From positions 3,308 to 67,307 of the forward strand of contig JBBAAP010000011.1 in the NCBI GenBank assembly GCA_041658285.1: a stretch of DNA of 64,000 nucleotides. The letters run 5' to 3'. Each line of letters begins with the position of its first letter. The stretch's first letter is position 1. The notes beneath the pieces are model-generated. The model was not told the DNA's origin, did no database searches, and worked only from the letters and a program-made list of their open reading frames with translations. The DNA is from Candidatus Brocadiia bacterium (GTDB lineage Bacteria; Planctomycetota; MHYJ01; JACQXL01). Below are positions 10,538 to 45,456 of the stretch, piece after piece. The translations under genes and the position numbers were made by a program.

Positions 10538-10891
10538 ATGGATAATATTACTGCTTTCGGCAAACTGATTTCGGACCAGACCCGCCTTAAAATTATCAAG
10601 CTTCTGTCGATCCGGCCGTTGTGCGTATGCGAGATGATGGATATTCTCCGCTTGAACCAGCCCTGTATCTCTCAGCACCTGGCTATCCTGAAATACCACA
10701 ACCTGCTCAAGTCGAGGCGCGATGGCAAGTGGATTGTTTACGCGGTGGATAAAAAGGTGCTTGGCCGATACCTGAATAAAATCAGCCATTTCCTGGAAGG
10801 TTCTATGAGCCACGTGGCAGAGTTACAGAAAGAGCATAAACGCCTGAAGGAACTTAAGAGTCGTGTGGTGCTATGCAAGAAGTGCAGGTAA
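10538..10891 (+). CDS. arsR: ArsR/SmtB-family metalloregulator
   Basis: 117 aa. HTH region LKIIKLLSIRPLCVCEMMDILRLNQPCISQHLAILK with the metal/arsenite-binding CVC motif. Confidence 0.85.
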   Translation: MDNITAFGKLISDQTRLKIIKLLSIRPLCVCEMMDILRLNQPCISQHLAILKYHNLLKSRRDGKWIVYAVDKKVLGRYLNKISHFLEGSMSHVAELQKEHKRLKELKSRVVLCKKCR

Positions 10892-10894
10892 ATT

Positions 10895-12061
10895 ATGAGT
10901 GAGCGCACTAAACTATTGCTGATACTGGCGATATTCCTGCTGTTTTATTTCGTGCCCTTTGGGCAGGTCCGGATGCAGAACGCGCTGATGGAGGCGTTTT
11001 ATATGCTCCAGGACTACGCCCGCCTGCACGTGATTCTGTGCCTGGTGCCGGCCTTCTTCATCGCCGGCGCGATTAGTAATTTTGTCAGCCAAGCCGCGGT
11101 GATGAAATACTTCGGGGCCAGGGCCAACAAGTTTCTGGCTTATTCGGTGGCTTCCGTTTCCGGCACAATCCTGGCCGTTTGCTCTTGCACAGTTTTGCCA
11201 ATCTTTGCAAGTATTTACCAGCGCGGGGCCGGTATCGGTCCGGCTACGGCTTTCCTTTATTCCGGTCCGGCCATAAATGTTTTGGCGATTATCCTGACCG
11301 CGCGGGTCTTAGGCCTGGAATTGGGAGTTACCCGGGCGGTTGGTGCAATTGCTTTCTCGGTCATTATCGGGTTATTGATGCATTTCATATTCCGCAAGGA
11401 AGAACTGAACAAGCAAAACAGTCAGGATATAGTGATTCCTGAAGAAGCCAAAGGAAGCCGTTCATTATTAAAGAATACCATCTACTTTGCCGTGATGTGC
11501 GGGATTTTGGTATTTGCCAATTGGGGGAAGGATGAGTCCATTCTATTATGGCAGAGTATTTATAATGTAAAGTGGTTCATCTCGGGCGGGTTAATAGTTA
11601 TCCTGGCATTTATCCTGACAAAATGGTTCCGCAGGAGTGAGCTGGGTTTCTGGGTGGATTCCAGCTGGGGATTTGCCAAGCAGATATTTCCTCTGCTTTT
11701 TGCCGGGGTATTTGTTTCGGGATTGCTGTTGGGTCGGCCCGGGCATCAGGCTCTTATCCCGAGCGAGTGGATTCAGTATTTGGTCGGTGGCAATAGCCTC
11801 TGGTCTAATTTCTTTGCTTCATTTGCCGGTGCGTTGATGTATTTTGCCACCCTGACCGAGATACCGATTCTGCAAGGATTAATCGGTTCCGGTATGGGCA
11901 AAGGTCCGGCTTTGGCGCTGTTGTTGGCCGGTCCGGCCCTGTCTTTGCCCAGTATGCTGGTCTTAAGGAGCATTATGGGCACCAAGAAGACGCTGGTTTA
12001 TGTCGGGCTGGTGGTGATAATGGCCACAATCACCGGAATGATTTACGGGGCGTGGATTTAG
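10895..12061 (+). CDS. COG0701-type permease (ArsP-like putative organoarsenical efflux permease)
   Basis: 388 aa, multi-TM. AVCSCTVLP resembles the ArsP TPFcSCS motif. Two-fold internal repeat (YSGPAINVLAI / LAGPALSLPSMLV). Immediately downstream of arsR. Confidence 0.65.
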   Translation: MSERTKLLLILAIFLLFYFVPFGQVRMQNALMEAFYMLQDYARLHVILCLVPAFFIAGAISNFVSQAAVMKYFGARANKFLAYSVASVSGTILAVCSCTVLPIFASIYQRGAGIGPATAFLYSGPAINVLAIILTARVLGLELGVTRAVGAIAFSVIIGLLMHFIFRKEELNKQNSQDIVIPEEAKGSRSLLKNTIYFAVMCGILVFANWGKDESILLWQSIYNVKWFISGGLIVILAFILTKWFRRSELGFWVDSSWGFAKQIFPLLFAGVFVSGLLLGRPGHQALIPSEWIQYLVGGNSLWSNFFASFAGALMYFATLTEIPILQGLIGSGMGKGPALALLLAGPALSLPSMLVLRSIMGTKKTLVYVGLVVIMATITGMIYGAWI

Positions 12062-12064
12062 TGA

Positions 12065-12168
12065 CGGTTCGAGTATAACGAGTTATACTCCAGCAGTTTG
12101 AACGTTAGTGAATTACTGCTGAGTATCCTCGGCTGATAACTCATTACATTCTAACAGCCGATGGACCG
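12065..12168. repeat. intergenic copy of the two-hairpin palindromic element family
   Basis: gagtataacgagttatactc palindrome, then tactccagcagt...actgctgagta, then tcggctgataactcattacattctaacagccgat. Near-identical to the in-frame copy at 9939-10019. Confidence 0.7.
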
Positions 12169-12310
12169 GCACCTTATCCAGTGTAAATCACAGTGGTAAT
12201 GATAGTTGTACTGGAGGCTAGGCTCTCCCGACTATTGAGCCGCAGCGAAATCCAGCACTTATGCAGGATTCCGTCGGGGTTAAGGTTACAGATAAACAAA
12301 AGGATTTAAA

Positions 12311-12868
12311 ATGCCTTACTTGAACGAGATAAAACTGGTTCAGACGATGCCCTGCATCGCAATGCCGGAGCGGATAAGGTTTGTGTCCGAGCTGGACCGC
12401 GATATTTCGGAGATGATGCCTTACATAAATGCAGTGGTGGAGGAGTCCATTTATAACCACGACGGTCCGTGCATTACTATGAAGCGTGATGGCCGGCTGA
12501 TAGGGGTCCAGCCGCGGCAGCTGGCGGCTGGCAAGGTAGTTGACCTAAAAGAAGCCACCGAGTTGATGGCTTGGTTTAAGGATGTGGTCAATGATTGCTA
12601 CAACCGGCGCGATTCAATTAAGCCGAACTATGAACGGCGCAACAAGCTTACACCGCTGGATGTCTATAAGCTTTTGCCTGGAACTAATTGCCAAAAGTGC
12701 GGACAGCCGTCCTGCCTGGCGTTCGGGGTGAAGGCGGCGGCTGAAGAAATCGGCATAATGAACTGTCCGGAACTATTTTCCGGCAGGTATGACGACAAGC
12801 GGAATTTGCTGGTCAAGCTGCTCAAATCGTGCGGTTACAGCGTTCCTGCGCCGTTTAGTGAAAAATAA
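12311..12868 (+). CDS. Cys-rich protein of unknown function, possibly Fe-S or zinc binding
   Basis: 185 aa with CQKCGQPSC...NCPELF and further Cys residues. Sits between the permease and the thioredoxin genes. Function not recognised. Confidence 0.4.
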   Translation: MPYLNEIKLVQTMPCIAMPERIRFVSELDRDISEMMPYINAVVEESIYNHDGPCITMKRDGRLIGVQPRQLAAGKVVDLKEATELMAWFKDVVNDCYNRRDSIKPNYERRNKLTPLDVYKLLPGTNCQKCGQPSCLAFGVKAAAEEIGIMNCPELFSGRYDDKRNLLVKLLKSCGYSVPAPFSEK

Positions 12869-12879
12869 AGGAGGTAGCT

Positions 12880-13128
12880 ATGAAGATAGAGATTTTGGGT
12901 ACCGGTTGCCCCAAGTGCAAGAAACTGACCGAGTTAACCAATGAAGTAGTTAAGGAATTGGGCGTTGAGGCAGAGGTGGTCAAGGTGGAAAAGATAACTG
13001 ACATAATGAAATACGGAGTGATGATGACCCCGGCGCTGGTTATAGACGGCCAGGTTAAGTCATCCGGCAAACTTCCCAGCAAAGCCGAGATTACCTCAAT
13101 TGTTACCACAGAACTATCAAAGCATTAA
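12880..13128 (+). CDS. small thioredoxin-fold protein (redox-active disulfide protein 2 type, CPKC active site)
   Basis: 82 aa. MKIEILGTGCPKCKKL... glutaredoxin/thioredoxin-like. RBS AAGGAGG upstream. Confidence 0.8.
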   Translation: MKIEILGTGCPKCKKLTELTNEVVKELGVEAEVVKVEKITDIMKYGVMMTPALVIDGQVKSSGKLPSKAEITSIVTTELSKH

Positions 13129-13149
13129 GATATAAAGAAAAGAGGTTGT

Positions 13150-13602
13150 ATGAGCTATGATAATAGGCGAAAACATTCTGCTGTAATCATTGTGTTTGTG
13201 TTGATTATTGCGGCTATCGCCGGCATAAAGTGCGATACTGAAGCCAAGCCGCCGGTTTCGGATAAGCCGGTTGTGATTGAGGTAAAAACGGCCGTTAATA
13301 ATCCTTTGGAGTCGGCGCTTAAGACCGGCCGTCCGGTGGTGGCTGATTTCGGCCGGGGCACCTGTATTCCCTGCAAGATGATGAAGCCGATACTGGATGA
13401 ACTGGCCGCGACGTATAAAGGCCGGGCGGAAATATTTATTTTTAGCATTGATGATTATCGGGACTTGACCGAGCAATACCGTATCCAGTTGATACCGACC
13501 CAGATATTCTTTGACAAGTCTGGTAAAGAGGTTTGGCGACACGAAGGGTTTTTGGATAAGGATAAAATTATTAGCAAGTTAGTTGAATTAGGTGTGAAAT
13601 AA
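13150..13602 (+). CDS. membrane-anchored thioredoxin (TlpA-like, CIPC active site)
   Basis: 150 aa. N-terminal TM anchor. GRGTCIPCKMMKP thioredoxin motif. Confidence 0.75.
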   Translation: MSYDNRRKHSAVIIVFVLIIAAIAGIKCDTEAKPPVSDKPVVIEVKTAVNNPLESALKTGRPVVADFGRGTCIPCKMMKPILDELAATYKGRAEIFIFSIDDYRDLTEQYRIQLIPTQIFFDKSGKEVWRHEGFLDKDKIISKLVELGVK

Positions 13603-14297
13603 TGATGCAGGAAGTATTTGCTAAATTAACGCAATGTTTTGATGCGGCGCCGTATATGGCTATCGTGGCGGCTTTTATCTGGGGTATCTTGAGCATTCTC
13701 TTGAGCCCGTGCCATTTAGCCAGCATCCCGCTTATCGTCGGGTTTATCAGCGGCCAGCGTGATAGCTCCGGGCGCAAGGCCTTTGGCTTGTCGCTTCTTT
13801 TCGCTACAGGTATCCTGATTACGGTTGGGATAATCGGACTGATTACAGCCGGTCTGGGCCGGATAGCCGGTGATGTCGAGCCGTATGGCAATTACCTGGT
13901 GGCCGTGATATTTTTCCTGGTTGGGTTGCATCTTGTCGGCGTCATACCGATGCCCTGGTCCGGTTTTTCCGGTCAGGGTAAGTGCAAGGGCTGGATGGCG
14001 GCGTTTTTATTGGGGTTAATCTTCGGCATTGCCCTGGGCCCCTGCACCTTTGCTTATATGGCGCCGGTCCTGGCTATGACATTTAAGATAGCGCCGACTA
14101 ATTTCGTATATGCGGCCGGATTGCTTTTGGCCTATGGGTTAGGCCACTGTTCTGTTATCGTGGCTGCCGGGACCAGTTCCGGGATGGTGCAATCGTATTT
14201 AAATTGGAGCGAGTCATCCAAGGCGACGATGATTATTAAAAAGATATGCGGGATACTCGTTATCCTGGGCGGGCTTTATTTGATATGGATTGCTTGA
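13602..14297 (+). CDS. ccdA: cytochrome c biogenesis / thiol-disulfide transporter CcdA (DsbD transmembrane domain family)
   Basis: 231 aa. [11 protein letters not shown] and ALGPCTFAY conserved Cys-containing TM motifs. Confidence 0.8.
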
Positions 14298-14319
14298 TTG
14301 TACGGGAAGGAGTAACATT

Positions 14320-15360
14320 ATGAGTAATGGCACGACTAAAAGGTTATCATTTTTAGACCGTTTCCTGACGCTCTGGATATTCCTGGCTATGGGCATCGGC
14401 GTGGCTATGGGGTATTTTATCCCTTCTATTGTCCAGTTCTGGGACCAGTTCAATTCAGGCACGACCAATATCCCCATTGCCATCGGGTTAATCCTGATGA
14501 TGTATCCGCCGCTGGCCAAGGTCAAATACGAGGAACTGGGCGATGTATTCAAAAATGTCAAGGTGCTTCTGCTGTCGTTGGTCCAGAACTGGATAATCGG
14601 TCCTATCCTGATGTTCGCGCTGGCTGTCATATTCCTGCCGGACAAGCCGGAGTATATGGTTGGCCTGATAATGATAGGCCTGGCTCGGTGCATCGCCATG
14701 GTCATAGTTTGGAACGAACTGGCCAAAGGCGACAGCGAATACGCCGCGGCGCTGGTGGCTTTCAATTCCATATTTCAGGTGCTGTTCTTCTCGGTCTACG
14801 CCTGGGTTTTTATCACCATACTGCCGGGCTGGTTCGGACTAAAAGGCATCGAGGTGAATATCACCATTGGGCAGATTGCCAAGAGCGTTTTTATATATCT
14901 GGGCATACCGTTCCTGGCCGGGATGATTACCAGATTCACTTTGATAAAACTTGTTAATAAAGATTGGTATCAGACAAAATTCATCCCGCGCATCAGTCCG
15001 ATTACCCTGATAGCCTTGCTGTTTACGATTATCGTGATGTTCTCCCTGAAAGGGGAGTATATCGTCAAGATACCGCTGGACGTGGTCCGGATTGCCATCC
15101 CTCTGCTTATATACTTTGTAGTTATGTTCCTGGTATCGTTCTATATGGGCCGGAAGGTAGGGGCCGATTATTCCAAGACCGTGACGCTGTCATTCACGGC
15201 GGCCAGTAACAACTTTGAGCTGGCCATAGCCGTAGCCGTGGCTGTGTTCGGGATAAACTCCGGAGCTGCCTTCGCCGCCGTTATAGGCCCGCTGGTCGAG
15301 GTGCCGGTGATGATAGGGCTGGTCAACGTGGCGTTCTGGTTTCAGAGAAAATATTATTAG
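14320..15360 (+). CDS. acr3: arsenite efflux transporter ACR3
   Basis: Start re-called at ATG 14320, after a GGAAGGAG RBS (the ORF track starts at 14290). [24 protein letters not shown] and the overall 10-TM pattern match ACR3 (BART superfamily). Confidence 0.8.
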
Positions 15361-15496: not shown

Positions 15497-16117
15497 ATGT
15501 CAAAACGAATATTTATATATCCGGTTTTATTATTATGTATCATTTCAATTTGTTGTAGTTCATCTGGGGCAAAACCGGCAACAAATATAGGGGCATTAGC
15601 ACAAGAACCGTTATCGTTAGAGTGTTTTGATGAGGCCATTGAAGGCTCCCCTTTAAAAAATGGGATGGTAAGGGTGAAATGTACTTGGTATGATTTGTTC
15701 TATCAAACCGAAATACAACCGGCGAGTATTAAGGTGAAAAATACGGGTAGATTATATTTTATTTCAAGTGGTGGAGCTCCTGCCGTTGCTTTGCATGAAG
15801 ATTCAAGTAGAAATTTTGCCCTTATATATGATGTTAAATCAATAGCTGAAAATTTGATTACGTTAAATTTAAAAGGAACACTATCTTATGTTAAAGAGAA
15901 TTTTTTTGTAGAATCTTTATGGGAAGGCACTGTGAAAAATGGCGAGGAGCAAGCTTTCAGTAAAGTATTCACAGACCCTATCAGTAAAGAAAATCGGTTG
16001 CTGTTAATTATAATTAAAGCTAATAATAAAAATGACAGCACAGATCCAGTTGACGAATACCGCAAAATGCATCCCTTTCTGAAAGAGCCTGACAAATCCA
16101 AAGAGCAACCTAAATAG
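15497..16117 (+). CDS. hypothetical lipoprotein
   Basis: 206 aa. Signal peptide with lipobox region (LLLCIISICCSSSG). AT-rich. Confidence 0.45.
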   Translation: MSKRIFIYPVLLLCIISICCSSSGAKPATNIGALAQEPLSLECFDEAIEGSPLKNGMVRVKCTWYDLFYQTEIQPASIKVKNTGRLYFISSGGAPAVALHEDSSRNFALIYDVKSIAENLITLNLKGTLSYVKENFFVESLWEGTVKNGEEQAFSKVFTDPISKENRLLLIIIKANNKNDSTDPVDEYRKMHPFLKEPDKSKEQPK

Positions 16118-17021: not shown

Positions 17022-18278
17022 ATGTCGCAGAATTGGTGGAAATATGCAGGATTATTCCTGCTTTTAGGGGCGGTGGTAATACTGAGCCAGGGCGGATGCG
17101 GCAGTAGCGGCGGTGATGATAATGAGGATGGTGATAGTGGACCTTTATTTCCTGGATATTCCGGTAATCTGACCACAACCGGCGGCGTGATATATGACGG
17201 CGGAAATATGGATTGGGGTTCTGACATTGCCGTGGACAGCACCATAACCGCCAGTCCGGTGGTTTACGTGTTGGGCGCGGCTTTTGCTTCGCCGACCGGC
17301 AACGGAGACGCGGTTATTTCTAAATTCAACAGCAGCGGCGATATCACCGCAGCTGCCAGGTTTAACGGTACGGGCGGCACGGCGCTTGCCGTAAACCAGA
17401 ACGGCGTTTATATGACCGGTCAGCGTCCAAGCCCGAGCGCTTATGTCACCGCTAAGTATGACCTGAACCTTAACCTGATAACCTCGACCGCTTTGGCCGG
17501 CGATGCCAGCGCCCGGGCTATGGCTCTGGATAATTCCGGCAATGTTTATGTCATCGGTTCGGACGGGACGATCAACGCTTATAATTATAAAATAGTCAAA
17601 TACGATGCCGATTTGGTCCAACAGGGTAGTCCGGTTATTTATGATAGCGGCTATAACGATGAGGGAAGCGGCATCGCGGTTGATAATTCCGGTAATATCT
17701 TTGTGACCGGTATGAAGATATCCGGCACCGGTTACAGCATCGTAACGTTGAAGTATAATTCTTCTCTGGTTCTTCAGAATACGGTCGAGTACAGCACCAA
17801 TGTTTATTATAGCACCAGTTATGGTTTATATCCAAGAATTGCGGTGGACAAGAACTCGGGCAGCGTCTATGTATCCGGGACTATATTAGGTACGGCCGGG
17901 CCGGGAGACCCGTTCAGGGACATTTTATTGATTAAGTATGACGCCAGCCTTAATCAGGTTGCCACCGCTATTTATGCGGATGGGCTTGAAGGCACGAATC
18001 TGGCGGTTGATGCCAGCGGTAATGTATATGTCAACGGCAACTATTATAACGGTGTTGTGCAGGATGCCTGGCTGGTGGTGAAGTATAATTCTTCCCTGGT
18101 TTACCAGTCTTATTTCACGGATAAATCAGCAACCAATTCGATGGACGAGCCGGGCGGGATAGCGCTGGACAGCGCCGGTAACGTGTATCTGAGCGGCATA
18201 ACTGCGCCGACTTATGTCTCGGGGGATTGGTCTAATTTTAATATCCGGGCTAAACGGTTTCCGCCGATGGGGCCGTAA
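17022..18278 (+). CDS. secreted beta-propeller repeat (SBBP-type) protein
   Basis: 418 aa with signal peptide. Repeated DNSGNVYVIG / DNSGNIFVTG / DASGNVYVNG / DSAGNVYLSG motifs. Confidence 0.7.
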   Translation: MSQNWWKYAGLFLLLGAVVILSQGGCGSSGGDDNEDGDSGPLFPGYSGNLTTTGGVIYDGGNMDWGSDIAVDSTITASPVVYVLGAAFASPTGNGDAVISKFNSSGDITAAARFNGTGGTALAVNQNGVYMTGQRPSPSAYVTAKYDLNLNLITSTALAGDASARAMALDNSGNVYVIGSDGTINAYNYKIVKYDADLVQQGSPVIYDSGYNDEGSGIAVDNSGNIFVTGMKISGTGYSIVTLKYNSSLVLQNTVEYSTNVYYSTSYGLYPRIAVDKNSGSVYVSGTILGTAGPGDPFRDILLIKYDASLNQVATAIYADGLEGTNLAVDASGNVYVNGNYYNGVVQDAWLVVKYNSSLVYQSYFTDKSATNSMDEPGGIALDSAGNVYLSGITAPTYVSGDWSNFNIRAKRFPPMGP

Positions 18279-18410: not shown

Positions 18411-21400
18411 ATGAAACCAGCTGATATTCATAATCCCGCTCCGCTGCGCTTCGGGGATAAGGTCCTTTCAGGAGGCTGCGCACTGCCACTAACTCGTTAT
18501 ACTCGAAGTGGCACTAAACCGGGTATTGCACTGGTGATGGTGCTTTTGGTCCTGCTGGTTCTGATGTTCCTGGGCATACCGTTTGTCGCCTCGATGCTTC
18601 TTAAAGAGAAAACTAATAAGAATTCGCTGTTTTTGGCCAAGAGCCGCATTGCTGCGGTCAGCGCCCGCAATTATGCCATCGCTTCGCTCGTTCGTGGATG
18701 CCTGAGCGAGGAACGTAAGGATACGGCGCTTGACCCGTTCAATACCCCGGATTATGACGTCGGAGTCGAGTTTGCCTCGAGGGAGATGACTTATACCGAT
18801 GTGGCTGACCCCAAGGGTGTTATCTGGTCCACCCGGGTAATCGATGAACAATCCAAGATTAATATCGGAGAAATCGCCAAGGCGGCTGAAAACCATCATA
18901 CCTTGATGAATAACCTGATTTCCCAGATGAAGCCGGCCGACAAGCTGGATGATTACATTACCGAGCACAGTTACCGCGCCACGCCCTGGGTGGACGCGCA
19001 GATGTTGGGCGGATATATGCTATACCAGGATTATAAAGATATCATGCGCACGGCGCTTTACCTGAAGAATTCATATTGGTACAGCGAGACCGGCGTCCGG
19101 GTCCGGTTGACTGCCGGTAACAGGGAGTTTATCTCTACGGCCAGTTACCAGCCCTGCGGACAGGGGCTTTGCCTTGATGCTAATTCCATTAAGGTTGTTC
19201 CGCTGGAATACAGTCCGCATATACAACACCCGCATAAAAAGCCGCCTTTCCCTTTGAATCAAGAAATATGGCGGACCGTAGCGGCCGGAGGATACACCTG
19301 GCTTTACATTGACCGAAACGTGCCGCCAGAGTTCCTGACGCCGGATACTATTTTCGAGGTGGAACAGCCGCACGCGGTGAATATAAACACCGCACCCAAG
19401 GAATTGGTCACGGCCTTATTGTGGGAATTGGGCCGGCGGTATTATGACCCGATTTTTAGCAGGCAGGTTGACGAGCGCATCAGTCTGGGCCAGGCCCAGA
19501 TGCTGGCCACAATGATAAAATCACGTGACTTCGCTAATCCAACCGACTGGCTGGGTTTCCTGCTCGATGTCAATGACAGCCGGATTATCACGGGGACGCA
19601 CGTATCGGCCTTGTGGACTAATTCGCGCCATCCCCGGTCATCGGCTTTTTACGATATTATCGACGAGCGGTTTACCGGGACATTGCCGTTCTGCTACCGC
19701 AGTTATGATACCTATAATATTAAGTCCACCGGCGTGGTTAATTATCCTTCAGGGTTGGAAGCGGCTCGGACGGTATTCAATGATATTGTGGAAGTTGCTC
19801 CGGCCCAGACTGCTACATTCCTTCTTGAGTCGCAATACGATTTTGATGAACAGTTTAATATGTTGTTGGGTAACCCCAGGCGATTCAGCACATTTCCTAA
19901 CGTATCTACTTTAAGGGTGGATAATTACATTGTCGGTTCGACTGAATACGTTGAGCCGGATTATTTGCGTTCAACCCAGCCGGAGATTGGGGAACTAAAG
20001 CTGAAGACGGCTGAAGATGACCGGGGAATAGACGTGATTTATAAGGATTCTTTTGAAGACACCCAGGAAGGGGAGCAGTTGGCCGGGACAGCTTTGACCT
20101 ATCAGAGCGATGATACGTTTGTTTTTCCGCCGGACCCGGCGAATAAGCCGGATATTTATCCGGGCGGAATCGAGCTCTGGGTGAAATTTTCTGCCAGCCC
20201 GTCGGGGTATATCGCTGATATTCGCCAGAGCGAATACGAGAACCGGATAAGCATTTCTTACGAGAATAACGAGTTGATATTGACGGTTTGTGACGCGGGC
20301 ATAGAGCGAAAATCGGCGCGGGTGGTGGCGCCGGTACAGTTGAGGGAAAATATCTGGTATCACATCGGCGCTTATTTTGAAGGCACCAAGCATTCCGGAT
20401 TGGCTTTATTCCTGGACGGCAAACCGGTGGGCAGTTTTGCTCACTACGACGATATGGACCGGGCTATTATTACGGAGTTGATGGCTGATGTGCCGGATAC
20501 GGTTACAGTCGCACCCGGGACTGACCTGATAATTCCGGTTAAGGATACCTCTTGTTTCCCGGGATCCGGTGTTATCCAGGTTGGAGAAGAAGCCATTGAA
20601 TATTCCGAAATCGTCGGCGGCGGGTTCAAAGTCCCGGTTTTTTGGAATATGTCGAATACCCCTCCGACTCCGGTGGGGAACGGCCGGGGACAGCGCGGCA
20701 CGGTGCTTATGGCGCATCCGGCCGGCGCTAAGGTAACGCCCTTTGGCTATTCTAACTTATTCGTCAGCAATGTTGATGTAACTGGTCCCGGTTTTCCTGC
20801 ACCGGTCCGGATAGATTATCAGCCCCTGCCGAAAGGCGGCGCTACTTTAGTTGAAAGCATTCTTGACACCTTGCCGCAGACAACTATTAACTGGCCTTTA
20901 GGTATTGATGCGGCAGATACGGTTATTACCGTTACTTCGGTAACTAATTTTCCTAATGAGGGATACGTCAGGCTGGGCAATAATGAAGTTATTTTTTATT
21001 TAGGTAAGGATGACAACTCCAAAACGCTGTTGAATTGCCGACGCGGTTTGTTGGGCACTGTCGGCCGTGACCACAGCAGCGGCGAGGCCGTGGATATGTA
21101 TTCCATAAAGGTCTCCGACAATACCGAATATCCGTCGCCGGGTATGATTCAGATTGACGACGAATGGATAGGGTTGGTCCAGAAAGGGGAAACGCCCGAA
21201 TACTTTACAGGCGTGGTTAACGGTACTACTCCGGTTGATTTTATGAGAGGTGTCTACGGACAAAGGACGCCTCATATGTCCGGAGCCTTGATTATTCCGG
21301 TGCTGGCGGCTGATGAACCTACTTGCGGCAAGGGCGATGTGGTGACTATTGTCGAAGATGACCATGTGACTGACAGCAAAGAAATGAAAACCATCCGTAA

Positions 21401-22532
21401 CGCAATGCGTTACAATGACGCGCAGACCGGAGAACCGAAATGTTTGCTGGCTTTTTTTGATAATCTTAGCAGGAATTATGATGTTGACGGAATAACAAGG
21501 ATGCTTAAATTTCCTTCGGATGAACTGCCTTCTTACTTGCCGGGCAATTTTTATATCGGCGGGGATGAGGCAGGTGGGTCTATACTGGGAATGGTGGATG
21601 AATTAAAGTGCTACAGCGGGGACCAGATAAATCGCCCGCTTTCGGACACATTGTATTCCGATACGCACAATGACCGGATCAGGGTACTGAATCTTAATGG
21701 CATGTCACCTTCAGGCGGGGTTATCAAAATAGGGGATGAGATTATCGGGTATGGCGGTATCGATTACCTGGCCGGCGAAATTACCGGGTGCGTACGCGGA
21801 TATCTCAATTCTACGCCGCAAACGCACGACTATCGGGAGAGGATATTCTATATTCCTTATTTGCCGGTGGCTGCATTAAAAAATAATCTTAGCCCGACTG
21901 ATTTTTCCGTGCCGGTCAGTACTATGAATGGTTTTTCGACGGACGCGGCTTATTTGTTGGTTGGTAATGACTTCAGCCAATCGGAGATGATCGGGTATCT
22001 TTGGCGAGATACCGGTAATGGACAGTTTCTGATGCCTTCTGATCGGACCGGTACGGGAATGTTCCGGGGGGCATTTGGGACTCCGGTTGGTTCATTTATA
22101 CAGGGGACGCTGGTTTACGCCATGCCGTTCCGTTACTGGCATTTGGAAAAACGCCAGGCGTTTCATCATGAAATGGCCTATTTCCATACGGCTCATTTTT
22201 CACGGGATGCCACATGGCAGAAGGTGCGCTGGACTGAGCGGCACGATCCGGCAGACGATGGGCTGGTCCAGTGGAGATTCTTAGTTCGGTTTGATAGCGG
22301 GCCGCACTGGGCCGATACGCCAACGAACCGCAAGGACGGTTTGTTTGAGTTCTTTTCACGGAATAGGGAGCAGGTTCTTAACATCGTTGCTAACCAGATA
22401 GAACTGCTGGCATTTGTCCAGTACCAGCCTGGCGCATTTCTTACGGATTCCTGGAAACGCGCCCCAGCTTTGACTAATCTATACATTGATTATTCTAAAC
22501 CTTCAGATATTATTTCCCACCAGGAAGAATAA
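18411..22532 (+). CDS. giant GspK-like pseudopilin N-terminus fused to a LamG/ConA-like adhesin-type extracellular region
   Basis: 1373 aa. N-terminal KPGIALVMVLLVLLVLMFLGIPF hydrophobic segment resembles GspK/PilX-type minor pseudopilins and lacks a classical G-FTLIE motif. A central segment (ELWVKFSASPSGYIADIR...WYHIGAYFEGTKHSGLALFLDGKPVG) looks like a laminin-G/concanavalin lectin fold. Exact start codon uncertain. Confidence 0.55.
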   Translation: MKPADIHNPAPLRFGDKVLSGGCALPLTRYTRSGTKPGIALVMVLLVLLVLMFLGIPFVASMLLKEKTNKNSLFLAKSRIAAVSARNYAIASLVRGCLSEERKDTALDPFNTPDYDVGVEFASREMTYTDVADPKGVIWSTRVIDEQSKINIGEIAKAAENHHTLMNNLISQMKPADKLDDYITEHSYRATPWVDAQMLGGYMLYQDYKDIMRTALYLKNSYWYSETGVRVRLTAGNREFISTASYQPCGQGLCLDANSIKVVPLEYSPHIQHPHKKPPFPLNQEIWRTVAAGGYTWLYIDRNVPPEFLTPDTIFEVEQPHAVNINTAPKELVTALLWELGRRYYDPIFSRQVDERISLGQAQMLATMIKSRDFANPTDWLGFLLDVNDSRIITGTHVSALWTNSRHPRSSAFYDIIDERFTGTLPFCYRSYDTYNIKSTGVVNYPSGLEAARTVFNDIVEVAPAQTATFLLESQYDFDEQFNMLLGNPRRFSTFPNVSTLRVDNYIVGSTEYVEPDYLRSTQPEIGELKLKTAEDDRGIDVIYKDSFEDTQEGEQLAGTALTYQSDDTFVFPPDPANKPDIYPGGIELWVKFSASPSGYIADIRQSEYENRISISYENNELILTVCDAGIERKSARVVAPVQLRENIWYHIGAYFEGTKHSGLALFLDGKPVGSFAHYDDMDRAIITELMADVPDTVTVAPGTDLIIPVKDTSCFPGSGVIQVGEEAIEYSEIVGGGFKVPVFWNMSNTPPTPVGNGRGQRGTVLMAHPAGAKVTPFGYSNLFVSNVDVTGPGFPAPVRIDYQPLPKGGATLVESILDTLPQTTINWPLGIDAADTVITVTSVTNFPNEGYVRLGNNEVIFYLGKDDNSKTLLNCRRGLLGTVGRDHSSGEAVDMYSIKVSDNTEYPSPGMIQIDDEWIGLVQKGETPEYFTGVVNGTTPVDFMRGVYGQRTPHMSGALIIPVLAADEPTCGKGDVVTIVEDDHVTDSKEMKTIRNAMRYNDAQTGEPKCLLAFFDNLSRNYDVDGITRMLKFPSDELPSYLPGNFYIGGDEAGGSILGMVDELKCYSGDQINRPLSDTLYSDTHNDRIRVLNLNGMSPSGGVIKIGDEIIGYGGIDYLAGEITGCVRGYLNSTPQTHDYRERIFYIPYLPVAALKNNLSPTDFSVPVSTMNGFSTDAAYLLVGNDFSQSEMIGYLWRDTGNGQFLMPSDRTGTGMFRGAFGTPVGSFIQGTLVYAMPFRYWHLEKRQAFHHEMAYFHTAHFSRDATWQKVRWTERHDPADDGLVQWRFLVRFDSGPHWADTPTNRKDGLFEFFSRNREQVLNIVANQIELLAFVQYQPGAFLTDSWKRAPALTNLYIDYSKPSDIISHQEE

Positions 22533-22589
22533 TTCGGGTTGAGCGCAACAATAGACCGAAAATATATAAGGGCTTGGTAAGGTTTTTAG

Positions 22590-22618
22590 TTGACAAATCA
22601 ACCAGTTTGTCATATACT
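22590..22618 (+). promoter_or_regulatory. sigma70-like promoter (TTGACA-17-TATACT)
   Basis: TTGACA at 22590-22595 and TATACT at 22613-22618, 14 nt before the ATG at 22632. Confidence 0.45.
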
Positions 22619-22631
22619 ATACACAAGATAT

Positions 22632-23732
22632 ATGAAAAGAACGTTTCAATTATTAATAGTGGTAATCATTGTTCTGGGCGGTTATATTGTTCTTGATTTT
22701 GTCCAGAGCAGGGCAGATGAGAAGCTTTTTCAGAAACAGTTGGAGACTTCAGTTACTGGACCTGCGATATCAAATGAAACTATAAACCGCGGTATTGCTA
22801 AAGAGATTCTTGTGAAGATGCCCTGGCCCAGTTTCGAAGGTACAAATGTCGGCAAGCCTGTTTCTCAGGCTGATGTTGTTGTCAAGTCACAGTTAAGGCT
22901 TAATGGCATAATTATTGAGCCGGGCCGCCCGGCTACGGCTTTTATTGAGGATCTGATTTCCAAGCAGTCTGGCTGGTATATCGAAAATGAGCGTTTGAAC
23001 GAGTGGATTATTGTCAAGATAACAGAGGATGAAGTAACGCTTCGCAACAATGCCGGTGAAATTTCCCGATTGACTATAGAGCGCACTTGGGGAGCGGCCA
23101 TAACCAATAGCGTGGTGGATTTGGTCAAAGGAGCTCAGAATATTGTTAATATGGCGTCGCCGGCTAATATGGCTGATATGGCCAAGATAATTGAGCCTAT
23201 GCTTAAAAAGGATGTACCCATAGAGCAGCTTCGGCCTCAGATTCAGGCGATTATTAATACTTTACCGCGCAAGGTTATCGAAGATCAGCTTCAGACATTG
23301 GGGATTGCGCCTTCAGAGATACCGCCGGATACAAACCTGACCGATTATGCGATAAAATTACTGGCTATTGGGCGTAATGAACAGGTTACTATTAGTGGGG
23401 CAGTCGTTGATATGCTGTTTTCACTTCAGGTTAATAAGGACAATAGCCCAATGACGCCGACAAAGATATTACCGATTGGTAAATACCGGATTTATGCTTG
23501 TTTCCCCAATAAGGATGCGTTAAAAGGGATATCTAAAGCAATTATTCGTTGGAATAACCAGACATCGGGGGAAACAGTAAGCATGAAACTTCATTCACTT
23601 GATCCTAATGCGCCCAACAATTTTATCTGGTTGGAGGCGAAGGAAGGTTGGACCAGGGGTACCTACGAGGTGGAACTTTTCAGGGTTAATACAGCCGAAA
23701 AGGTGGCTAGCGGAATATATAGAGTGGAGTGA
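22632..23732 (+). CDS. hypothetical membrane-anchored periplasmic protein (candidate secretin-associated component)
   Basis: Start taken at MKRTFQLLIVVIIVLGGYIVL (signal anchor). No recognised domain. Tightly coupled to the secretin gene with a 4-nt gap. Confidence 0.4.
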   Translation: MKRTFQLLIVVIIVLGGYIVLDFVQSRADEKLFQKQLETSVTGPAISNETINRGIAKEILVKMPWPSFEGTNVGKPVSQADVVVKSQLRLNGIIIEPGRPATAFIEDLISKQSGWYIENERLNEWIIVKITEDEVTLRNNAGEISRLTIERTWGAAITNSVVDLVKGAQNIVNMASPANMADMAKIIEPMLKKDVPIEQLRPQIQAIINTLPRKVIEDQLQTLGIAPSEIPPDTNLTDYAIKLLAIGRNEQVTISGAVVDMLFSLQVNKDNSPMTPTKILPIGKYRIYACFPNKDALKGISKAIIRWNNQTSGETVSMKLHSLDPNAPNNFIWLEAKEGWTRGTYEVELFRVNTAEKVASGIYRVE

Positions 23733-23736
23733 ATTT

Positions 23737-25668
23737 ATGAAATATAAGATTCTTGTCATGTGTTTATTGATGATGGCTCCGGTGTTTGCCCAAGAGCCTG
23801 CGACGCCTTCCACGCCCACAGGAGGTGTGGTAAAATATAATGGTCCGGTTAAGCTGAGTGAACTTCTTGGGTACATAGGGAACCGCGAGCAGAGGACCAT
23901 TATTTATGCCGATGCGGCTATCCCGCAGGAAACCATATTTGTTATTACGCCCAAGGAAGGCATCTCTGTGGATAATTTCCTTAATATGATAGATACATTG
24001 CTTAGGTTGAAGAATGTAGTGGCTATTAGAACGGAAACCACGCTTAAGGTGATGAGGACAGGTGATGCCCGCGACATTACGCCGGTTAGGCCGCCTGCTG
24101 ATATAGGGAGTCTGCCCGATACCGACCAGCTTATTACCCAAACTATCCCATTGAAGTATCTTGATGCCAATACGGCTAATCAGATAGTTCAGCAGATGAG
24201 GGGCAAGGATACTCAGAGTATTGCTTCGATGGATGGCAACAGTATTATTGTTGTCGATTATGCATCCAACATCAAGAGGTTTTACGAGATATTAAAACAG
24301 CTTGATATTGAGCAGACGCCCTATCTGAGCGAGGTAAGGATATTGAAGAACGCATCTTCCACCGCAGTCAAAACTGCGCTGGATAGTTATGTTCAGGGTA
24401 CGGCGCAGTTCATTAAGCAAAAGGCCGGAGTGCCTCCGGCCCGTCCTTTTATCACGGTTGATGAACGTACCAGCACTATAATGATATTTGCCTTAGAGAA
24501 AGATATGCCACAGCTTTTAAAGCTGGTTGAAATGCTTGACAAGGAAGCGGCGCAGAAGGATACGTCGGTTTATATTTACAAGTTGGTCAATACCACAGCG
24601 GATGATATCGCGAAAATAGTTTTGGATGCTTACAGCAAACAACAGTTCCAACCGCCGGCCCGCCGGACTATGGAAATTATCAGCGTCACTGCAGAAAAGA
24701 GCACTAACTCACTGATTATTGTTGCTCCGCCTAGAATTTATGAAGAGATGGTTGAGTTGATAAAAAAACTAGATGTCCGTAAATTGCAGGTGAACATTGA
24801 GGCGGCTATTGGTGAGTTTTCTTACGACAAGATGCTGGAACTTGGTATCGAACTCGCCGCATTCAGCCAGCCGACTGTTGCGGGTACTAATGCGACGAAT
24901 GTTAGTGGTGCGCCGCTTCCCGGTGTTATTGCCGGAACTACTTTTGGTTTGTCGCAAATAAAGCCGGATGGGGGAAAAGTACCTATTCCGCCGACATATG
25001 GTGGTTTGACAATGGGTTTATGGGCCGGGAAACAAGACAGCATTCCTTTTTTGCTCAGGGCGGCTAAAACAGATGGAGACGTTAATGTCAAGGCCGCGCC
25101 TTCTATTGTGGTTAATGATAATTCAGAGGCAACGATTACTATCGGGGAAAAGATTCCTTATGATACGAAAACAGTCGGGCCGGATGGTACGGTTACTGGC
25201 ATTACTTTCGGCGGATATCTGGAAGCAGCTATTAAGCTTAAGATAATTCCTCATATCAGCGAGGATGATTATCTGCGGCTTGAAATAGACCAGACAGTTG
25301 ATGAATTTATGGAAACATCGTATTCAGATACAAGGCCGGGTACGACCTCGCGTTCGGCCAAGACCATGGTGACTATTCCGAATAAGAATACAGTTGCTAT
25401 CGGCGGGATGAAGAAAGAGTATAAAACTTACACTGTGTCCAAGGTTCCTTTTTTAGGTGATATACCGATATTTGGGTTTTTCTTTAGCAAGACCAAGGAG
25501 GTTGTGCGGGAGAAATACCTGTGGATATTCATCAAGCCGGAGATTATAAAGAATTTTCAGGATTTGATTGAGAAGACCAAGCAGGATCAGAAAACGCTGG
25601 AAGGTGTTCAGAATAATAAAGAGGGTATTAAGGATAAGGACTACATAGAAACACCTGTTAATAAATAA
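23737..25668 (+). CDS. secretin (GspD/PilQ family outer-membrane channel)
   Basis: Start re-called at MKYKILVMCLLMMAPVFAQ (signal peptide). N-domains, then C-terminal secretin core (NVKAAPSIVVNDNSEATITIGEKIPY ... VPFLGDIPIFGFFFSKTKEVVREKYLWIFIKPEII). Confidence 0.85.
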   Translation: MKYKILVMCLLMMAPVFAQEPATPSTPTGGVVKYNGPVKLSELLGYIGNREQRTIIYADAAIPQETIFVITPKEGISVDNFLNMIDTLLRLKNVVAIRTETTLKVMRTGDARDITPVRPPADIGSLPDTDQLITQTIPLKYLDANTANQIVQQMRGKDTQSIASMDGNSIIVVDYASNIKRFYEILKQLDIEQTPYLSEVRILKNASSTAVKTALDSYVQGTAQFIKQKAGVPPARPFITVDERTSTIMIFALEKDMPQLLKLVEMLDKEAAQKDTSVYIYKLVNTTADDIAKIVLDAYSKQQFQPPARRTMEIISVTAEKSTNSLIIVAPPRIYEEMVELIKKLDVRKLQVNIEAAIGEFSYDKMLELGIELAAFSQPTVAGTNATNVSGAPLPGVIAGTTFGLSQIKPDGGKVPIPPTYGGLTMGLWAGKQDSIPFLLRAAKTDGDVNVKAAPSIVVNDNSEATITIGEKIPYDTKTVGPDGTVTGITFGGYLEAAIKLKIIPHISEDDYLRLEIDQTVDEFMETSYSDTRPGTTSRSAKTMVTIPNKNTVAIGGMKKEYKTYTVSKVPFLGDIPIFGFFFSKTKEVVREKYLWIFIKPEIIKNFQDLIEKTKQDQKTLEGVQNNKEGIKDKDYIETPVNK

Positions 25669-25856: not shown

Positions 25857-27191
25857 ATGAAAAATTGGCAATGGTTGGTGTTGATTAGTGTCCCATTTTT
25901 TGCATTTATACTTGCAGGTTGTCCTTGGGCTGGTGAGGATGATTACGAAACAGGCGCCAGCGGAGTTATTTCAGGAGTTGTGGGTGGAGTCGGTTCTTGG
26001 GAATTGATAGCGCCTTGGCTCAGTCCGGGCGGAAGAAACCAGCCTCCGGTGGGAACGCCTCTGGTTGCGGCCCGTGAACAGCATACTATGGTATGGACAT
26101 GGCCCGGTACTCCTAGATTTATTATCTGGGGTGGTCGTGGCGTAGGCGGTTATTTGACTTCTGGCGCATTGTGGAGACAAAGTACCAGGGTTTGGTCTGC
26201 TACACCGGCCGTATTTACCGGCGGTTGGTATGGCGGTGGTTTGCCTCCCCGAACCGGACATACCGCCGTTTGGGATGGACAGGAAAAGATTGTTTTTGGC
26301 GGTCAGGGTTCAGACGGTACCATATATAACAGTGGGGCAATGTATGACCCGGCCGGTGCGACCTGGATATATATGAGTCCTCCTTCCTCGGTCTATACCA
26401 GAATCGGACATACTGCTAATTGGAACGGTACCAGGATGCTCGTATTCGGTGGATATGGTAGTGCTTCCTATTCCTATTACTGGTGGTGGACGTATACTCC
26501 GGCCACATTCTTAGCTAGCTTGCAGATATTTAATCCGACGCTTAATACCTGGACTAATGGTTCAACCAGTGGCGAGGCAACACCGCGTTGGAATCATACG
26601 TCAATCTGGACAGGCACAGAACTTATTGTTTGGGGCGGTTCGTCCGCTTCTTATCTTAATAACGGCCGCAGATATAATTTTTCTACAGACAGTTGGAGTG
26701 AAATGACTCTTAGCCGTGCACCTTCGGCGCGAGAAAACCATACAGCGGTGTTTACCGGGAACGGCACCAATGCTTGGAATAATAAGATGATTATCTGGGG
26801 CGGAGGCAGTCCGCGGCCTACGAACTCTGGTGGTATCTATGATATTGCGCTTGATCAATGGTTGCCGGTAACAGATGGTATCACGGCACCGATATCTAGG
26901 ACAAATCATACGGCGTTATGGACTAATCCTGGTGTTGATGATGATACCATTAGATTTAAGAGAATGATTGTTTGGGGCGGGACTGATACGGATGGTAACC
27001 AGTTGAACTCGGGAGGCATTTATGACCCGTTGACTAATACTTGGCAGGCAACGCAACAGAGTGCCAATCCTCCTCCGGTTAGAAGGCGTCATACGGCAGT
27101 CTGGACCGGGACTCAAATGGTAATATTTGGGGGTTATAACGGTGAGGATTATCTTAGTGATGCTTGGATATATACTCCGCCGGCAAGATAA
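25857..27191 (+). CDS. Kelch-repeat beta-propeller lipoprotein
   Basis: 444 aa. Lipobox LAGC. At least 6 Kelch-like blades (HTAVWDG..IVFGG; HTANWNGTRMLVFGGYG; HTSIWTGTELIVWGG; HTAVWTGTQMVIFGGYNG). Confidence 0.75.
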   Translation: MKNWQWLVLISVPFFAFILAGCPWAGEDDYETGASGVISGVVGGVGSWELIAPWLSPGGRNQPPVGTPLVAAREQHTMVWTWPGTPRFIIWGGRGVGGYLTSGALWRQSTRVWSATPAVFTGGWYGGGLPPRTGHTAVWDGQEKIVFGGQGSDGTIYNSGAMYDPAGATWIYMSPPSSVYTRIGHTANWNGTRMLVFGGYGSASYSYYWWWTYTPATFLASLQIFNPTLNTWTNGSTSGEATPRWNHTSIWTGTELIVWGGSSASYLNNGRRYNFSTDSWSEMTLSRAPSARENHTAVFTGNGTNAWNNKMIIWGGGSPRPTNSGGIYDIALDQWLPVTDGITAPISRTNHTALWTNPGVDDDTIRFKRMIVWGGTDTDGNQLNSGGIYDPLTNTWQATQQSANPPPVRRRHTAVWTGTQMVIFGGYNGEDYLSDAWIYTPPAR

Positions 27192-40147: not shown

Positions 40148-40158
40148 AGGAGGGTCTA

Positions 40159-42042: not shown

Positions 42043-42054
42043 TAAGTATTTTTA

Positions 42055-45454: not shown

Positions 45455-45456
45455 AT

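Follow-up and report, generated by a model that had tools for sequence, protein, structure and literature searches.

The window analysed here, a 64,000-nucleotide stretch from a Candidatus Brocadiia bacterium MAG, contains three neighbouring genes flanked by two genes for beta-propeller proteins, and the genes and parts given below with their coordinates lie on its forward strand. The first gene (18411..22532), recognised from its open reading frame and its homologues, encodes a predicted giant, modular GspK-type minor pseudopilin of 1373 amino acids, whose public record is MFA5795217.1 'hypothetical protein WC980_09180'. The second (22632..23732; homologue alignment and Foldseek) encodes a GspC-like protein of 366 amino acids from ATG 22632, and the third (23737..25668; Pfam, TIGR02517 and phmmer) encodes a predicted GspD-type secretin of 643 amino acids. 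Upstream of the giant gene lies a gene for a secreted SBBP beta-propeller protein (17022..18278; Pfam/NCBIfam), the position of which is kept in relative L005 (68% identity), and downstream of the secretin lies a gene for a Kelch beta-propeller lipoprotein with the lipobox L-A-G-C (25857..27191; Pfam), the position of which is kept in relative L002. The 1373-residue frame and both flanking proteins are present as the original prediction had described them. The same prediction took all three genes to be translationally linked, which holds for the membrane protein and the secretin, since ATG 23737 lies 4 nt past the gspC stop codon, but not for the giant gene, which ends 99 nt before ATG 22632. 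A sigma-70-like promoter match (TTGACA-17-TATACT, 11/12; 22590..22618), a match to consensus only, sits within this 99-nt gap. Tight coupling is confined to gspC and gspD.

The giant open reading frame is intact, is a feature far beyond chance, and is found in other MAGs at 41-68% identity. The start of the protein is uncertain. ATG 18411 is the sole canonical in-frame start 5' of the conserved K-x-G↓IALV motif, and the leader predicted from it is unusually long at 37 residues, versus 4-24 in homologues, which weighs against the reading that we prefer below. The segment KPGIALVMVLLVLLVL occupies residues 36-51. Profile searches and hhalign delimit a complete GspK module at residues ~38-476 (18522..19838). 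It opens with Gly38, where prepilin cleavage is predicted, and a hydrophobic alpha1-N helix; the middle region is enlarged, and beta-strands close the module. As in GspK/XcpX, the minor pseudopilin at the T2SS tip (PDB 3CI0 and 5VTM), the prepilin-like N-terminus has Gly at -1 and no Glu at +5, and the pattern G↓[IMV]AL[LIV][MI]V is kept in ~45 family members. The module also shares the two signature motifs of these proteins, DExGK[IL]N[IL]N and the helix-hairpin-helix N[IV]NTA. Motif 1, 'DEQSKINI' (residues 145-152; 18843..18866; family alignment and hhalign), has D, E, Q, K and N invariant throughout the family, and motif 2, 'EQPHAVNINTA' (residues 318-328; 19362..19394), opens a helix-hairpin-helix-like domain and is where the Pfam T2SSK match falls in relative L023. 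When the family N-terminus, from the helix through the first motif, was aligned with bona fide GspKs using hhalign, the match scored 99.3% (E 7e-21), and the segment from the helix-hairpin-helix to the end matched GspK residues 209-324 of 328 at 96.8% (E 2.4e-10). The alignment thus reaches the final strand of real GspKs and is complete before the added region begins. Likewise, the family profile recovered Pfam-verified GspKs (E 1.6e-9) from a database of 5.8 billion proteins, and XcpX (5vtm_X) was the only PDB sequence match. These end-to-end alignments bear out the GspK-like N-terminus that had been proposed, and they indicate a true GspK-type pseudopilin module rather than a mere signal anchor.

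Whereas GspK and XcpX are ~300-350 residues long, the giant protein carries ~900 all-beta residues after the module, fewer than the more than 1300 first thought to be appended. The first part of this graft is the predicted LamG, or concanavalin-A-like lectin, domain, which spans residues ~560-700 with its core at 587-681 (20169..20453). With Pfam PF13385 the whole protein scores 26.5 bits and the subsequence 27.8 bits (E 3e-6), against a gathering cutoff of 27.6, and in Foldseek the domain aligns locally with laminin LG5, agrin and pentraxin (prob 1.0, rmsd 3-4 A over ~95 columns), in agreement with the original assignment. An all-beta region follows (20532..22115), in which a motif scan revealed five copies of a 55-65-residue repeat with the pattern 'G-x-I-x-I-G/D-x-E-x-I...C-x-RG-x-x-GT', beginning near residues 720, 851, 911, 1103 and 1180. 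This region matches PHROG tail-fibre, tail and virion-structural families (E 4e-8 to 1e-4), AF2 models it as all-beta, with pLDDT 60-87 in some segments, and the BFVD matches of the graft are large phage LamG/tail proteins at low TM-scores. The protein ends in a conserved beta-domain (22128..22529; family alignment and AF2) with the family-wide motif W-K-x-x-P-x-L-x-x-L-x-[IV]-[ED]-Y...[IV]-[LI]-x-H/Q-[EQ]-E, and the graft region is kept as the C-terminal part in 569 representative clusters. Mean AF2 pLDDT is low for the giant protein (58), as it is for the GspC-like protein (49).

The membrane protein encoded by the second gene had been described as unknown. Its longest reading is a 380-residue frame from TTG 22590, and homologue alignment fixes the start at ATG 22632. 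A single TM helix lies at the N-terminus of the protein (residues ~5-24). The HR/PilP-like beta-domain takes up residues 88-148 (22893-23075), and after it come a helical region and a C-terminal beta-sandwich, where T2SS GspC has a PDZ domain or coiled coil. Neither Pfam (T2SSC included) nor NCBIfam gave a match, and the family is very rare: the 5.8-billion-protein database has 4 clusters of it, and metagenomes add 2 loci. The confident part of the AF2 model (residues 91-150, block means 58-84) superposes on the HR domain of ETEC GspC (3oss_C), the top PDB match in Foldseek (prob 1.00, TMt 0.80, rmsd 1.7 A, 30% identity); further matches are PilP (2ivw, 2lc4) and LspC (7oio). As modelled, this protein is a GspC-like secretin connector of the inner membrane, so that the trio would read gspK-gspC-gspD, with gspK standing for the giant gene. 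A TM-anchored HR-domain protein encoded directly 5' of an N0-N3 secretin is also what the T2SS GspC-GspD pair presents (ETEC 3OSS; Legionella LspC 7OIO).

The secretin itself is full, as the original prediction had it: a Sec signal peptide is followed by N0-N3 and secretin domains. Pfam finds Secretin at 1e-39 and three Secretin_N stretches. It scores 317 bits against TIGR02517 GspD, for which the cutoff is 351, and 174 bits against PilQ. Using phmmer, we observed near-full-length matches to T2SS GspD structures (1e-45), whereas the match to PilQ covers the C-terminal domain only (1e-22); the N0-N2 fragment 3ezj is matched at 4e-6. These scores argue that the secretin is GspD-type over its whole length. 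All three window proteins miss the curated cutoffs of their families (GspK, GspC and GspD).

The giant pseudopilin belongs to a large, phylum-wide family that lacks existing annotation and comprises 569 representative clusters, nearly all from Planctomycetota. The orthologue of the giant gene lies inside a pilM-like/TPR/gspG-H-K-J-I-like operon at ~50 related loci in Planctomycetota, with a PilM-like gene upstream and genes with GFTLxE prepilin motifs on its flanks. Among these neighbours, one matches GspG (53 bits), another matches GspH and carries LamG, a 360-residue protein matches GspJ and Verru_Chthon-C very weakly, and a 150-residue protein matches GspI/PilV. In closer relatives the J- and I-like genes stay beside the giant gene, whereas gspI and gspJ do not adjoin it in this window; the secretin-adjacent trio is confined to three related genomes. 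A Pfam search of ORFs with 150 residues or more and a six-frame prepilin-motif scan found no ATPase, platform, peptidase or prepilin-motif ORF of a T2SS or T4P in the window, as had been noted for the pilin, ATPase, platform and peptidase genes, and no T2SS/T4P gene was called in the ~8 kb of parent contig read beyond it. Because orthologous giants sit in pseudopilin operons at ~50 loci, the secretin probably belongs to a system that continues elsewhere, in spirit the situation that the original prediction named as counting against it. Since the orthologues occupy such operons, we argue that what lies in the window is a single piece of a dispersed machine, and we consider it moderately likely that gspK-gspC-gspD is part of a T2SS-like type IV filament machine with a modular adhesin as its tip pseudopilin. 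That this genome has a functional machine is only assumed, because its partner pseudopilin, ATPase, platform and peptidase are unseen in the window and the ~8 kb beyond.

Together with partners like GspI and GspJ, GspK/PilK modules form a cap at the filament tip. In the machine that we favour, prepilin peptidase would cut off the leader after Gly38, and the GspK module, joined by I/J-like pseudopilins from genes elsewhere, would nucleate the tip of a pilus or pseudopilus. As a GspG-like major subunit polymerises, the tip could then be pushed into or through the GspD channel, presumably that of the neighbouring secretin, and the graft may thereby be presented for ligand binding, most likely to a glycan or a surface. 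The GspC-like HR domain would dock on GspD N0 and so link the assembly platform to the outer-membrane channel. The homologies, domain order and synteny are direct observations, and a tip-displayed adhesin is the most economical reading of them.

The classical T2SS pseudopilus is thought to stay periplasmic, and the cluster might instead encode a periplasmic piston that forms no surface pilus, with the graft recognising or pushing cargo inside the secretin vestibule. Exoproteins modified with glycans or lipids might serve as that cargo, the flanking SBBP and Kelch beta-propellers for example. All three components are T2SS-type rather than T4P-type: the GspC-like protein has a TM anchor and an HR domain, the secretin matches GspD over nearly its full length, and the GspK alignment runs to the final strand, as in T2SS GspK (PMC13533445). 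The Kelch lipobox (LAGC) is canonical, and the Kelch and SBBP gene positions are kept in relatives. Lipoproteins secreted by T2SSs are known, pullulanase being an example. However, a ~100 kDa graft at a periplasmic pseudopilus tip would crowd the secretin vestibule unless exported, and graft plus cargo would be hard to fit beneath the gate. LamG and phage tail-fibre repeats are what one would expect in receptor binders that face outward, and the propeller neighbours are missing at the other ~50 family loci. We therefore regard a piston as rather unlikely.

The original prediction of an adhesin displayed through the secretin stands as far as its parts are concerned, with GspK module, LamG domain and secretin all found, but a stand-alone module is not favoured. 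Such a self-contained unit, working with no pilin, ATPase or platform, would fit both the lack of other T2SS/T4P genes in the window and the ~8 kb beyond and the retention of the trio as a unit in three genomes. It is nevertheless very unlikely, given that orthologues elsewhere lie within full pseudopilin/PilM-like operons, that the J- and I-like genes remain beside the giant gene in closer relatives, and that the GspK module retains every feature needed for filament incorporation. No secretin-dependent system is known to work without an ATPase and a platform, and scattered T2SS loci are common, the Legionella lsp genes among them.

We also find it highly improbable that the cluster is a recently acquired, AT-rich genomic island, as had been suggested. 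The GC content of the region is 0.475 against 0.497 for the window, and the GC3 values of gspC (0.44) and gspD (0.48) fall under the window mean of 0.60. However, the giant gene is average in composition (GC 0.502; GC3 0.556, against a gene mean of 0.604, sd 0.119), and the lower-GC3 run, from 22.6 to 31 kb, also takes in the adjoining lpxL-like, ompA-like and EF-G genes. The cluster and its downstream housekeeping genes are syntenic in a relative with 62% identity, which likewise speaks against horizontal acquisition, and no integrase, tRNA or repeat boundary was noted beside the cluster. That the N-terminal hydrophobic stretch is the signal anchor of an unrelated large surface protein, with a merely compositional likeness to GspK, is hardly credible: the Pfam T2SSK models do not match the giant protein and NCBIfam GspK reaches only 22.9 bits (E 5e-5) against a cutoff of 130, but the profile-profile matches pass the hydrophobic helix and span both signature motifs and the terminal strands, and real GspKs were the only proteins recovered from outside the family.

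Some of the relatives' genes resemble the pilus cassettes of the PVC group (Akkermansia Amuc_1098-1102; Verru_Chthon A-D, NCBIfam/TIGRFAMs), in that their pseudopilins and PilM-like proteins weakly match Verru_Chthon B/C/D and Amuc_1101, and the window secretin gives a weak Amuc_1098-family match; all of these matches are far under cutoffs and limited to N-terminal helices or partial regions. NCBIfam scans of the giant protein returned the GspK model alone and no Verru_Chthon family. Modular pilins are a known theme, and here it is carried by a GspK-type tip pseudopilin beside GspC-GspD in an uncultured Brocadiia-class planctomycete. Modular type IV pilins such as Streptococcus sanguinis PilC (lectin module) and PilB (vWA module) likewise have a functional module fused C-terminally to the pilin module, and such pilins with PF13385 lectin modules have been documented and are believed to lie exposed at the tip (PMC8179133). 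They were catalogued via the Glu5-type motif IPR012902, and the largest cited case has 860 residues (PMC8179133), whereas the present family has a GspK-type carrier, a multi-domain graft and 1300-2200 residues. The beta-propeller family of PilY1 was not found in Pfam searches. CpaL of the Caulobacter Tad pilus, an adhesin-bearing minor-pilin-like protein that acts like GspK, and the PilC/PilY1 tip adhesins share with the giant protein a large adhesin tied to the I-J-K tip initiation complex (PMC13533445). In CpaL, however, the adhesin is inserted before the donor strand, whereas here it follows an already complete GspK module.

The ORF listing confirmed the 1373-aa reading frame proposed in the original prediction, which lies at 18411-22532 on the forward strand and is referred to here as the giant gene. 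It is followed by a 366-aa gene at 22632-23732 (+), here called gspC, and by a secretin gene at 23737-25668 (+), here called gspD. The gspC reading frame spans 22590-23732, and the start backed by homology is the ATG at 22632, giving the 366-aa product. The true start of the secretin is the ATG at 23737, 4 nt past the gspC stop, which yields a 643-aa protein with a Sec signal peptide. Existing annotation lists the giant and gspC products as "hypothetical proteins", while the NCBI record for the secretin gene reads "secretin N-terminal domain-containing protein". Translational linkage had been proposed for the whole trio, but coupling looks limited to gspC and gspD; the giant gene and gspC are separated by 99 nt that hold an 11/12 sigma-70-like match at 22590-22618 (a candidate promoter), and a search for a terminator-like site between them found none. 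The flanking propellers exist as predicted: an SBBP beta-propeller protein is encoded upstream (17022-18278) and a Kelch beta-propeller protein downstream (25857-27191), the latter bearing an L-A-G-C lipobox.

The N-terminus of the giant protein resembles a class III signal peptide (K-P-G38|I-A-L-V-M(+5)-V-L-L), in which Gly at -1 precedes a hydrophobic alpha1-N helix that lacks Glu at +5. The pattern [RQSK]-G|[IMV]-A-L-[LIV]-[MI]-V…P-F…S-M is kept in approximately 45 relatives, likewise without Glu at +5. Both GspK hallmark motifs are present as well, DEQ(S/G)KINI at residues 145-152 and EQPHAVNINTA at residues 318-328, and their core residues are invariant. When a 19-sequence profile of N-termini from the family of giant homologues was compared with 5.8 billion sequences, bona fide GspKs alone were retrieved outside the family (E 1.6e-9 to 7e-6), and these GspKs pass Pfam T2SSK_1st/T2SSK above the gathering score. 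Alignment of the family to them using hhalign extends from the N-terminal helix to the first motif (DExGK-N-N; profile residues 4-149; 99.3%, E 7e-21) and from the HhH motif (N-x-N-T-A) to the terminal strands (GspK residues 209-324 of 328; 96.8%, E 2.4e-10). XcpX (5vtm_X), aligned at the HhH motif, was the sole PDB sequence match of the family profile. The giant protein itself missed the curated GspK cutoff (NCBIfam NF037980, 22.9 bits vs 130, E 5e-5) and had no match to Pfam T2SSK or T2SSK_1st (PF21687, PF03934) at E<0.1, and a direct search of its whole sequence against the PDB returned nothing meaningful, the one match being calcyphosin at E 1.2. Because the GspK alignments span the N-terminal helix to the last strand, we assign residues 38-476 to a complete GspK module, which would adopt a pilin fold. 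The predicted GspK-like N-terminus is thus upheld by profile-profile matches that reach both motifs and the terminal strands, and the reading of this N-terminus as a mere signal anchor, with which the missed Pfam and NCBIfam models would be compatible, is poorly supported. The appended portion is smaller than the more than 1300 residues first supposed: with the module ending near residue 476, the C-terminal graft comprises approximately 900 residues.

The predicted LamG fold was recovered within this graft by Pfam (PF13385, residues 587-681), barely above the gathering score when scanned alone (27.8 vs 27.6 bits), and scans of graft sub-segments for other Pfam domains returned LamG alone. An AF2 model of residues 470-1373 (904 residues) is all-beta with a modest mean pLDDT of 58. 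Foldseek searches with this model gave local matches to laminin-G, agrin, pentraxin and galectin folds, and the LamG fold was the only one identified against the PDB. The graft also contains a repeat of 55-65 residues in five copies (from approximately 720, 851, 911, 1103 and 1180), which match PHROG tail-fibre, tail and virion-structural families (E 4e-8 to 1e-4). Against viral models (BFVD), Foldseek found large phage LamG/tail proteins with good E-values but TM-scores near 0.1, which we take as a hint only. A GspK module at 38-476 is thus followed by LamG and phage tail-fibre-type repeats, whose folds are not confined to type IV filaments, and this arrangement is that of a modular pilin. 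The C-terminal domain closes with the motif W-K..P.L..L.[IV][ED]Y…[IV][LI].H[EQ]E, kept down to 25%-identity relatives. A small 'G-x-I-x-I-G-x-E' repeat of the graft was matched in 12 stretches of one 5123-aa protein (P0115), indicating that the graft-type repeat also forms very long repetitive proteins.

The gspC product had no match in Pfam, including T2SSC, or in NCBIfam, and its homologues form four clusters only in the 5.8-billion-protein database. A hydrophobic segment at residues 5-24 represents an N-terminal TM helix. With a mean pLDDT of 49 the AF2 model is weak as a whole, and the part modelled with reasonable confidence is a six-stranded domain at residues 88-148 (block means of 58-84 over 91-150). 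The best PDB match of the model in Foldseek is 3oss_C, the HR domain of ETEC GspC from the GspC-GspD complex (prob 1.00, TMt 0.80, rmsd 1.7 A, 30% identity), followed by PilP (2ivw, 2lc4) and Legionella LspC (7oio). Outside the HR domain the model is of low confidence, its C-terminus consisting of helices and a beta-sandwich without a PDZ or coiled-coil domain. The TM anchor and the position directly before the secretin gene are as in GspC. The product of 22632-23732, with its TM anchor, modelled HR domain and location 4 nt upstream of the secretin, is thus predicted to be GspC-like. It had been described as a membrane protein of unknown kind; the membrane anchor stands, and the kind can now be proposed from the match of the HR domain to GspC. 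Adjacent 539- and 316-aa proteins on a JGI contig (Ga0208373_1002140; L065:7468-10121) share only its C-terminal beta-sandwich half (residues ~192-365), which suggests that this half is a mobile domain that also occurs apart from GspC.

The secretin is full-length, as predicted, with a Pfam Secretin domain and three Secretin_N stretches, which correspond to N0-N3 plus the secretin domain. It scores 317.1 bits against TIGR02517 (GspD), under the equivalog cutoff of 351.35, compared with 173.8 bits for PilQ and 100.8 bits for SctC. Using phmmer, residues 44-632 align to residues 18-615 of solved GspDs (~1e-45), PilQs match the C-terminal domain only (1e-22), and the N0-N2 fragment 3ezj also matches (E 4e-6). 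On these alignments we classify the secretin as GspD-type.

An exhaustive HMMER search with residues 700-1373 of the giant protein returned 569 representative clusters at E<=1e-3 (374 at E<=1e-10), almost all from Planctomycetota, in which the match lies almost always at the C-terminus of a 1250-2200-aa protein. A scan of species-representative genomes yielded 55 family loci, almost all in Planctomycetota or Brocadiia MAGs. For the neighbourhoods of these loci, ORFs were clustered and representatives annotated; for the high-GC loci L003, L004 and L051, gene order was taken from database gene calls. The usual neighbourhood comprises an FHA protein, a PilM-like protein, two small membrane proteins, a TPR protein, a GspG-like pseudopilin, a GspH-like pseudopilin with LamG and the giant itself, followed by a 360-aa pseudopilin and a 150-aa GspI/PilV-like pseudopilin. 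Database gene calls in two further relatives gave the same order. Orthologues of the giant elsewhere are followed by two N_methyl pseudopilin genes, and relatives of approximately 40% identity retain both downstream pseudopilins. In the ~40% clade (L006-L008), two paralogous 320-330-aa secreted proteins, without known family, and a radical-SAM protein (PF04055) precede the giant orthologue, so that the upstream genes differ from the PilM/TPR/pseudopilin set of more distant relatives. One Planctomycetota MAG encodes two tandem giant GspK-type paralogues of 1501 and 1335 aa (L014:5054-13909).

No secretin was found within 10 kb of the family gene in the 55 related loci, so a neighbouring secretin does not characterise the family. 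The giant-gspC-gspD order occurs in three places only: this MAG, an ENA contig (L002, 62%) and MAG JAZDFB01 (L005 and L062, 68-77%). In L002 and L062, gspC sits beside the secretin, as in the window, and more distant GspC-like homologues adjoin tyrS without a neighbouring secretin.

The absence of pilin, ATPase and platform genes was borne out for the window. Pfam scans found no ATPase, platform or peptidase gene among its larger ORFs, a six-frame scan revealed no GFTLxE-type prepilin ORF, and the parent contig, read to position 72.3 kb (approximately 8 kb past the window), contains nothing but housekeeping genes there. At related loci, pseudopilin and PilM-like genes lie beside the giant, a context that argues for partners encoded at other sites of this genome rather than for a machine able to do without them. 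The reading with the best support is that of a dispersed T2SS-like type IV filament machine, the tip pseudopilin of which would have become a modular adhesin, with its processing, localisation and ligand presumed. The chief alternative is a piston that stays in the periplasm and whose enlarged tip would act on cargo, perhaps the lipoprotein propellers encoded nearby; the lipobox of the Kelch protein and the adjoining GspC-GspD pair are consistent with such a role, and the LamG and tail-fibre-type repeats of the graft fit the adhesin. A stand-alone display module would agree with the lack of machine genes in the window but is poorly supported, given the pilus-type genes at related loci.

Horizontal acquisition of the region as an island is also poorly supported. 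The flagged region has a GC content of 0.475 compared with 0.497 for the window, but the giant ORF is of average composition (GC 0.502, GC3 0.556; gene mean GC3 0.604, sd 0.119). GC3 falls to 0.44 and 0.48 in gspC and gspD, and the low run carries on through the Kelch, lpxL-like, ompA-like and EF-G genes (0.40-0.48). The 62%-identity relative has the same gene order: giant, 366-aa protein, secretin, Kelch, NifU, LpxL, OmpA and EF-G. These composition values and the conserved order leave the "AT-rich island" description unsupported.

For the tip-adhesin reading, there are precedents. For modular pilins, PF13385 lectin modules figure in the 15 commonest architectures, and the largest protein cited has 860 residues (PMC8179133), and the giant protein fits the same strategy. 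Since that catalogue rested on a Glu5-type motif (PMC8179133), GspK-type carriers, which are without Glu5, would escape it. CpaL, which is minor-pilin-like and carries an adhesin domain, shows GspK-like behaviour, and the mounting of adhesins on the filament cap is an active question (PMC13533445); the giant fits this pattern of an adhesin-bearing GspK-like protein. A CpaL-style insertion of the graft, placed ahead of a returning C-terminal donor strand, was not favoured, since the GspK alignment has reached its end by ~476; the conserved C-terminus sustains this idea as a side hypothesis. PilY1/PilC tip adhesins differ in that their C-terminal PilY1-type beta-propeller is missing in the giant: Pfam scans of the whole protein and its sub-segments gave LamG alone, and the graft model had no propeller-type PDB match. 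Likewise, NCBIfam scans of the giant and its L023 orthologue gave no match to Verru_Chthon cassette protein A and returned GspK alone. The literature searched held no description of giant planctomycetal GspK proteins, and nothing under 'Verru_Chthon cassette'.

The locus reveals a large family of "hypothetical proteins" that would combine a complete GspK module with a lectin-plus-tail-fibre-like graft of ~100-200 kDa, and the lineage of the giant places a family gene directly beside a GspC-GspD conduit. Two "hypothetical proteins" here can be annotated as putative GspK and GspC. To our knowledge, GspK/PilK-class minor pilins cap and initiate every type IV filament, and the molecular basis of surface fibres and polymer capture in Planctomycetota is poorly understood. 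The family is a concrete candidate for a filament tip adhesin in this phylum and a natural test of the tip load that a secretin-dependent filament can take. A broader proposal, which we regard as rather unlikely, is that the 1300-2200-aa GspK-type proteins are the tip adhesins of planctomycetal pili or fibres, joining in one polypeptide roles elsewhere split between PilK/GspK and PilY1. On that view, the extreme C-terminus conserved throughout the family might act as a further assembly signal, such as a strand that folds back onto the tip complex. If true, GspC, GspD and a GspK that has its last strand in cis would represent a T2SS-type machine turned into a phylum-wide organelle for surface adhesion or substrate capture.

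Several other features of the window were observed. The gene at 15497-16117 (+), situated 2.3 kb upstream of the giant, is truly AT-rich (GC 0.349, GC3 0.28) and stands out in composition far more than the flagged region does; its 206-aa product has a signal- or lipoprotein-like N-terminus and no match in Pfam or NCBIfam. GC3 of neighbouring genes ranges from 0.28 to 0.79 across the window, with a low block at 22.6-31 kb and a high block at 42-60 kb, swings that could reflect expression-linked codon bias, mosaic history or an assembly chimera. On visual inspection of the sequences, 10538-15360 (+) is an apparent redox/arsenic-type cluster comprising a small regulator-sized ORF, a 388-aa permease, a Cys-rich 185-aa protein, thioredoxin-like and CcdA/DsbD-like proteins and a 356-aa membrane protein resembling an ACR3-type arsenite carrier. 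Three large HEAT-repeat proteins of 594, 627 and 714 aa, the last with a squalene-hopene-cyclase-like C-terminal repeat, are encoded at 38363-47601 (+); genes for a Fer4_5 membrane protein and a NicO/DsbD_2-like transporter lie between them, and an OEP/AcrB efflux pair comes after the run. Finally, a signal peptidase I (Peptidase_S26) with an N-terminal multi-TM extension of approximately 200 residues, DUF5683/DUF6677-like, is encoded at 36690-37814 (-), where the window is at its most AT-rich (GC ~0.39).
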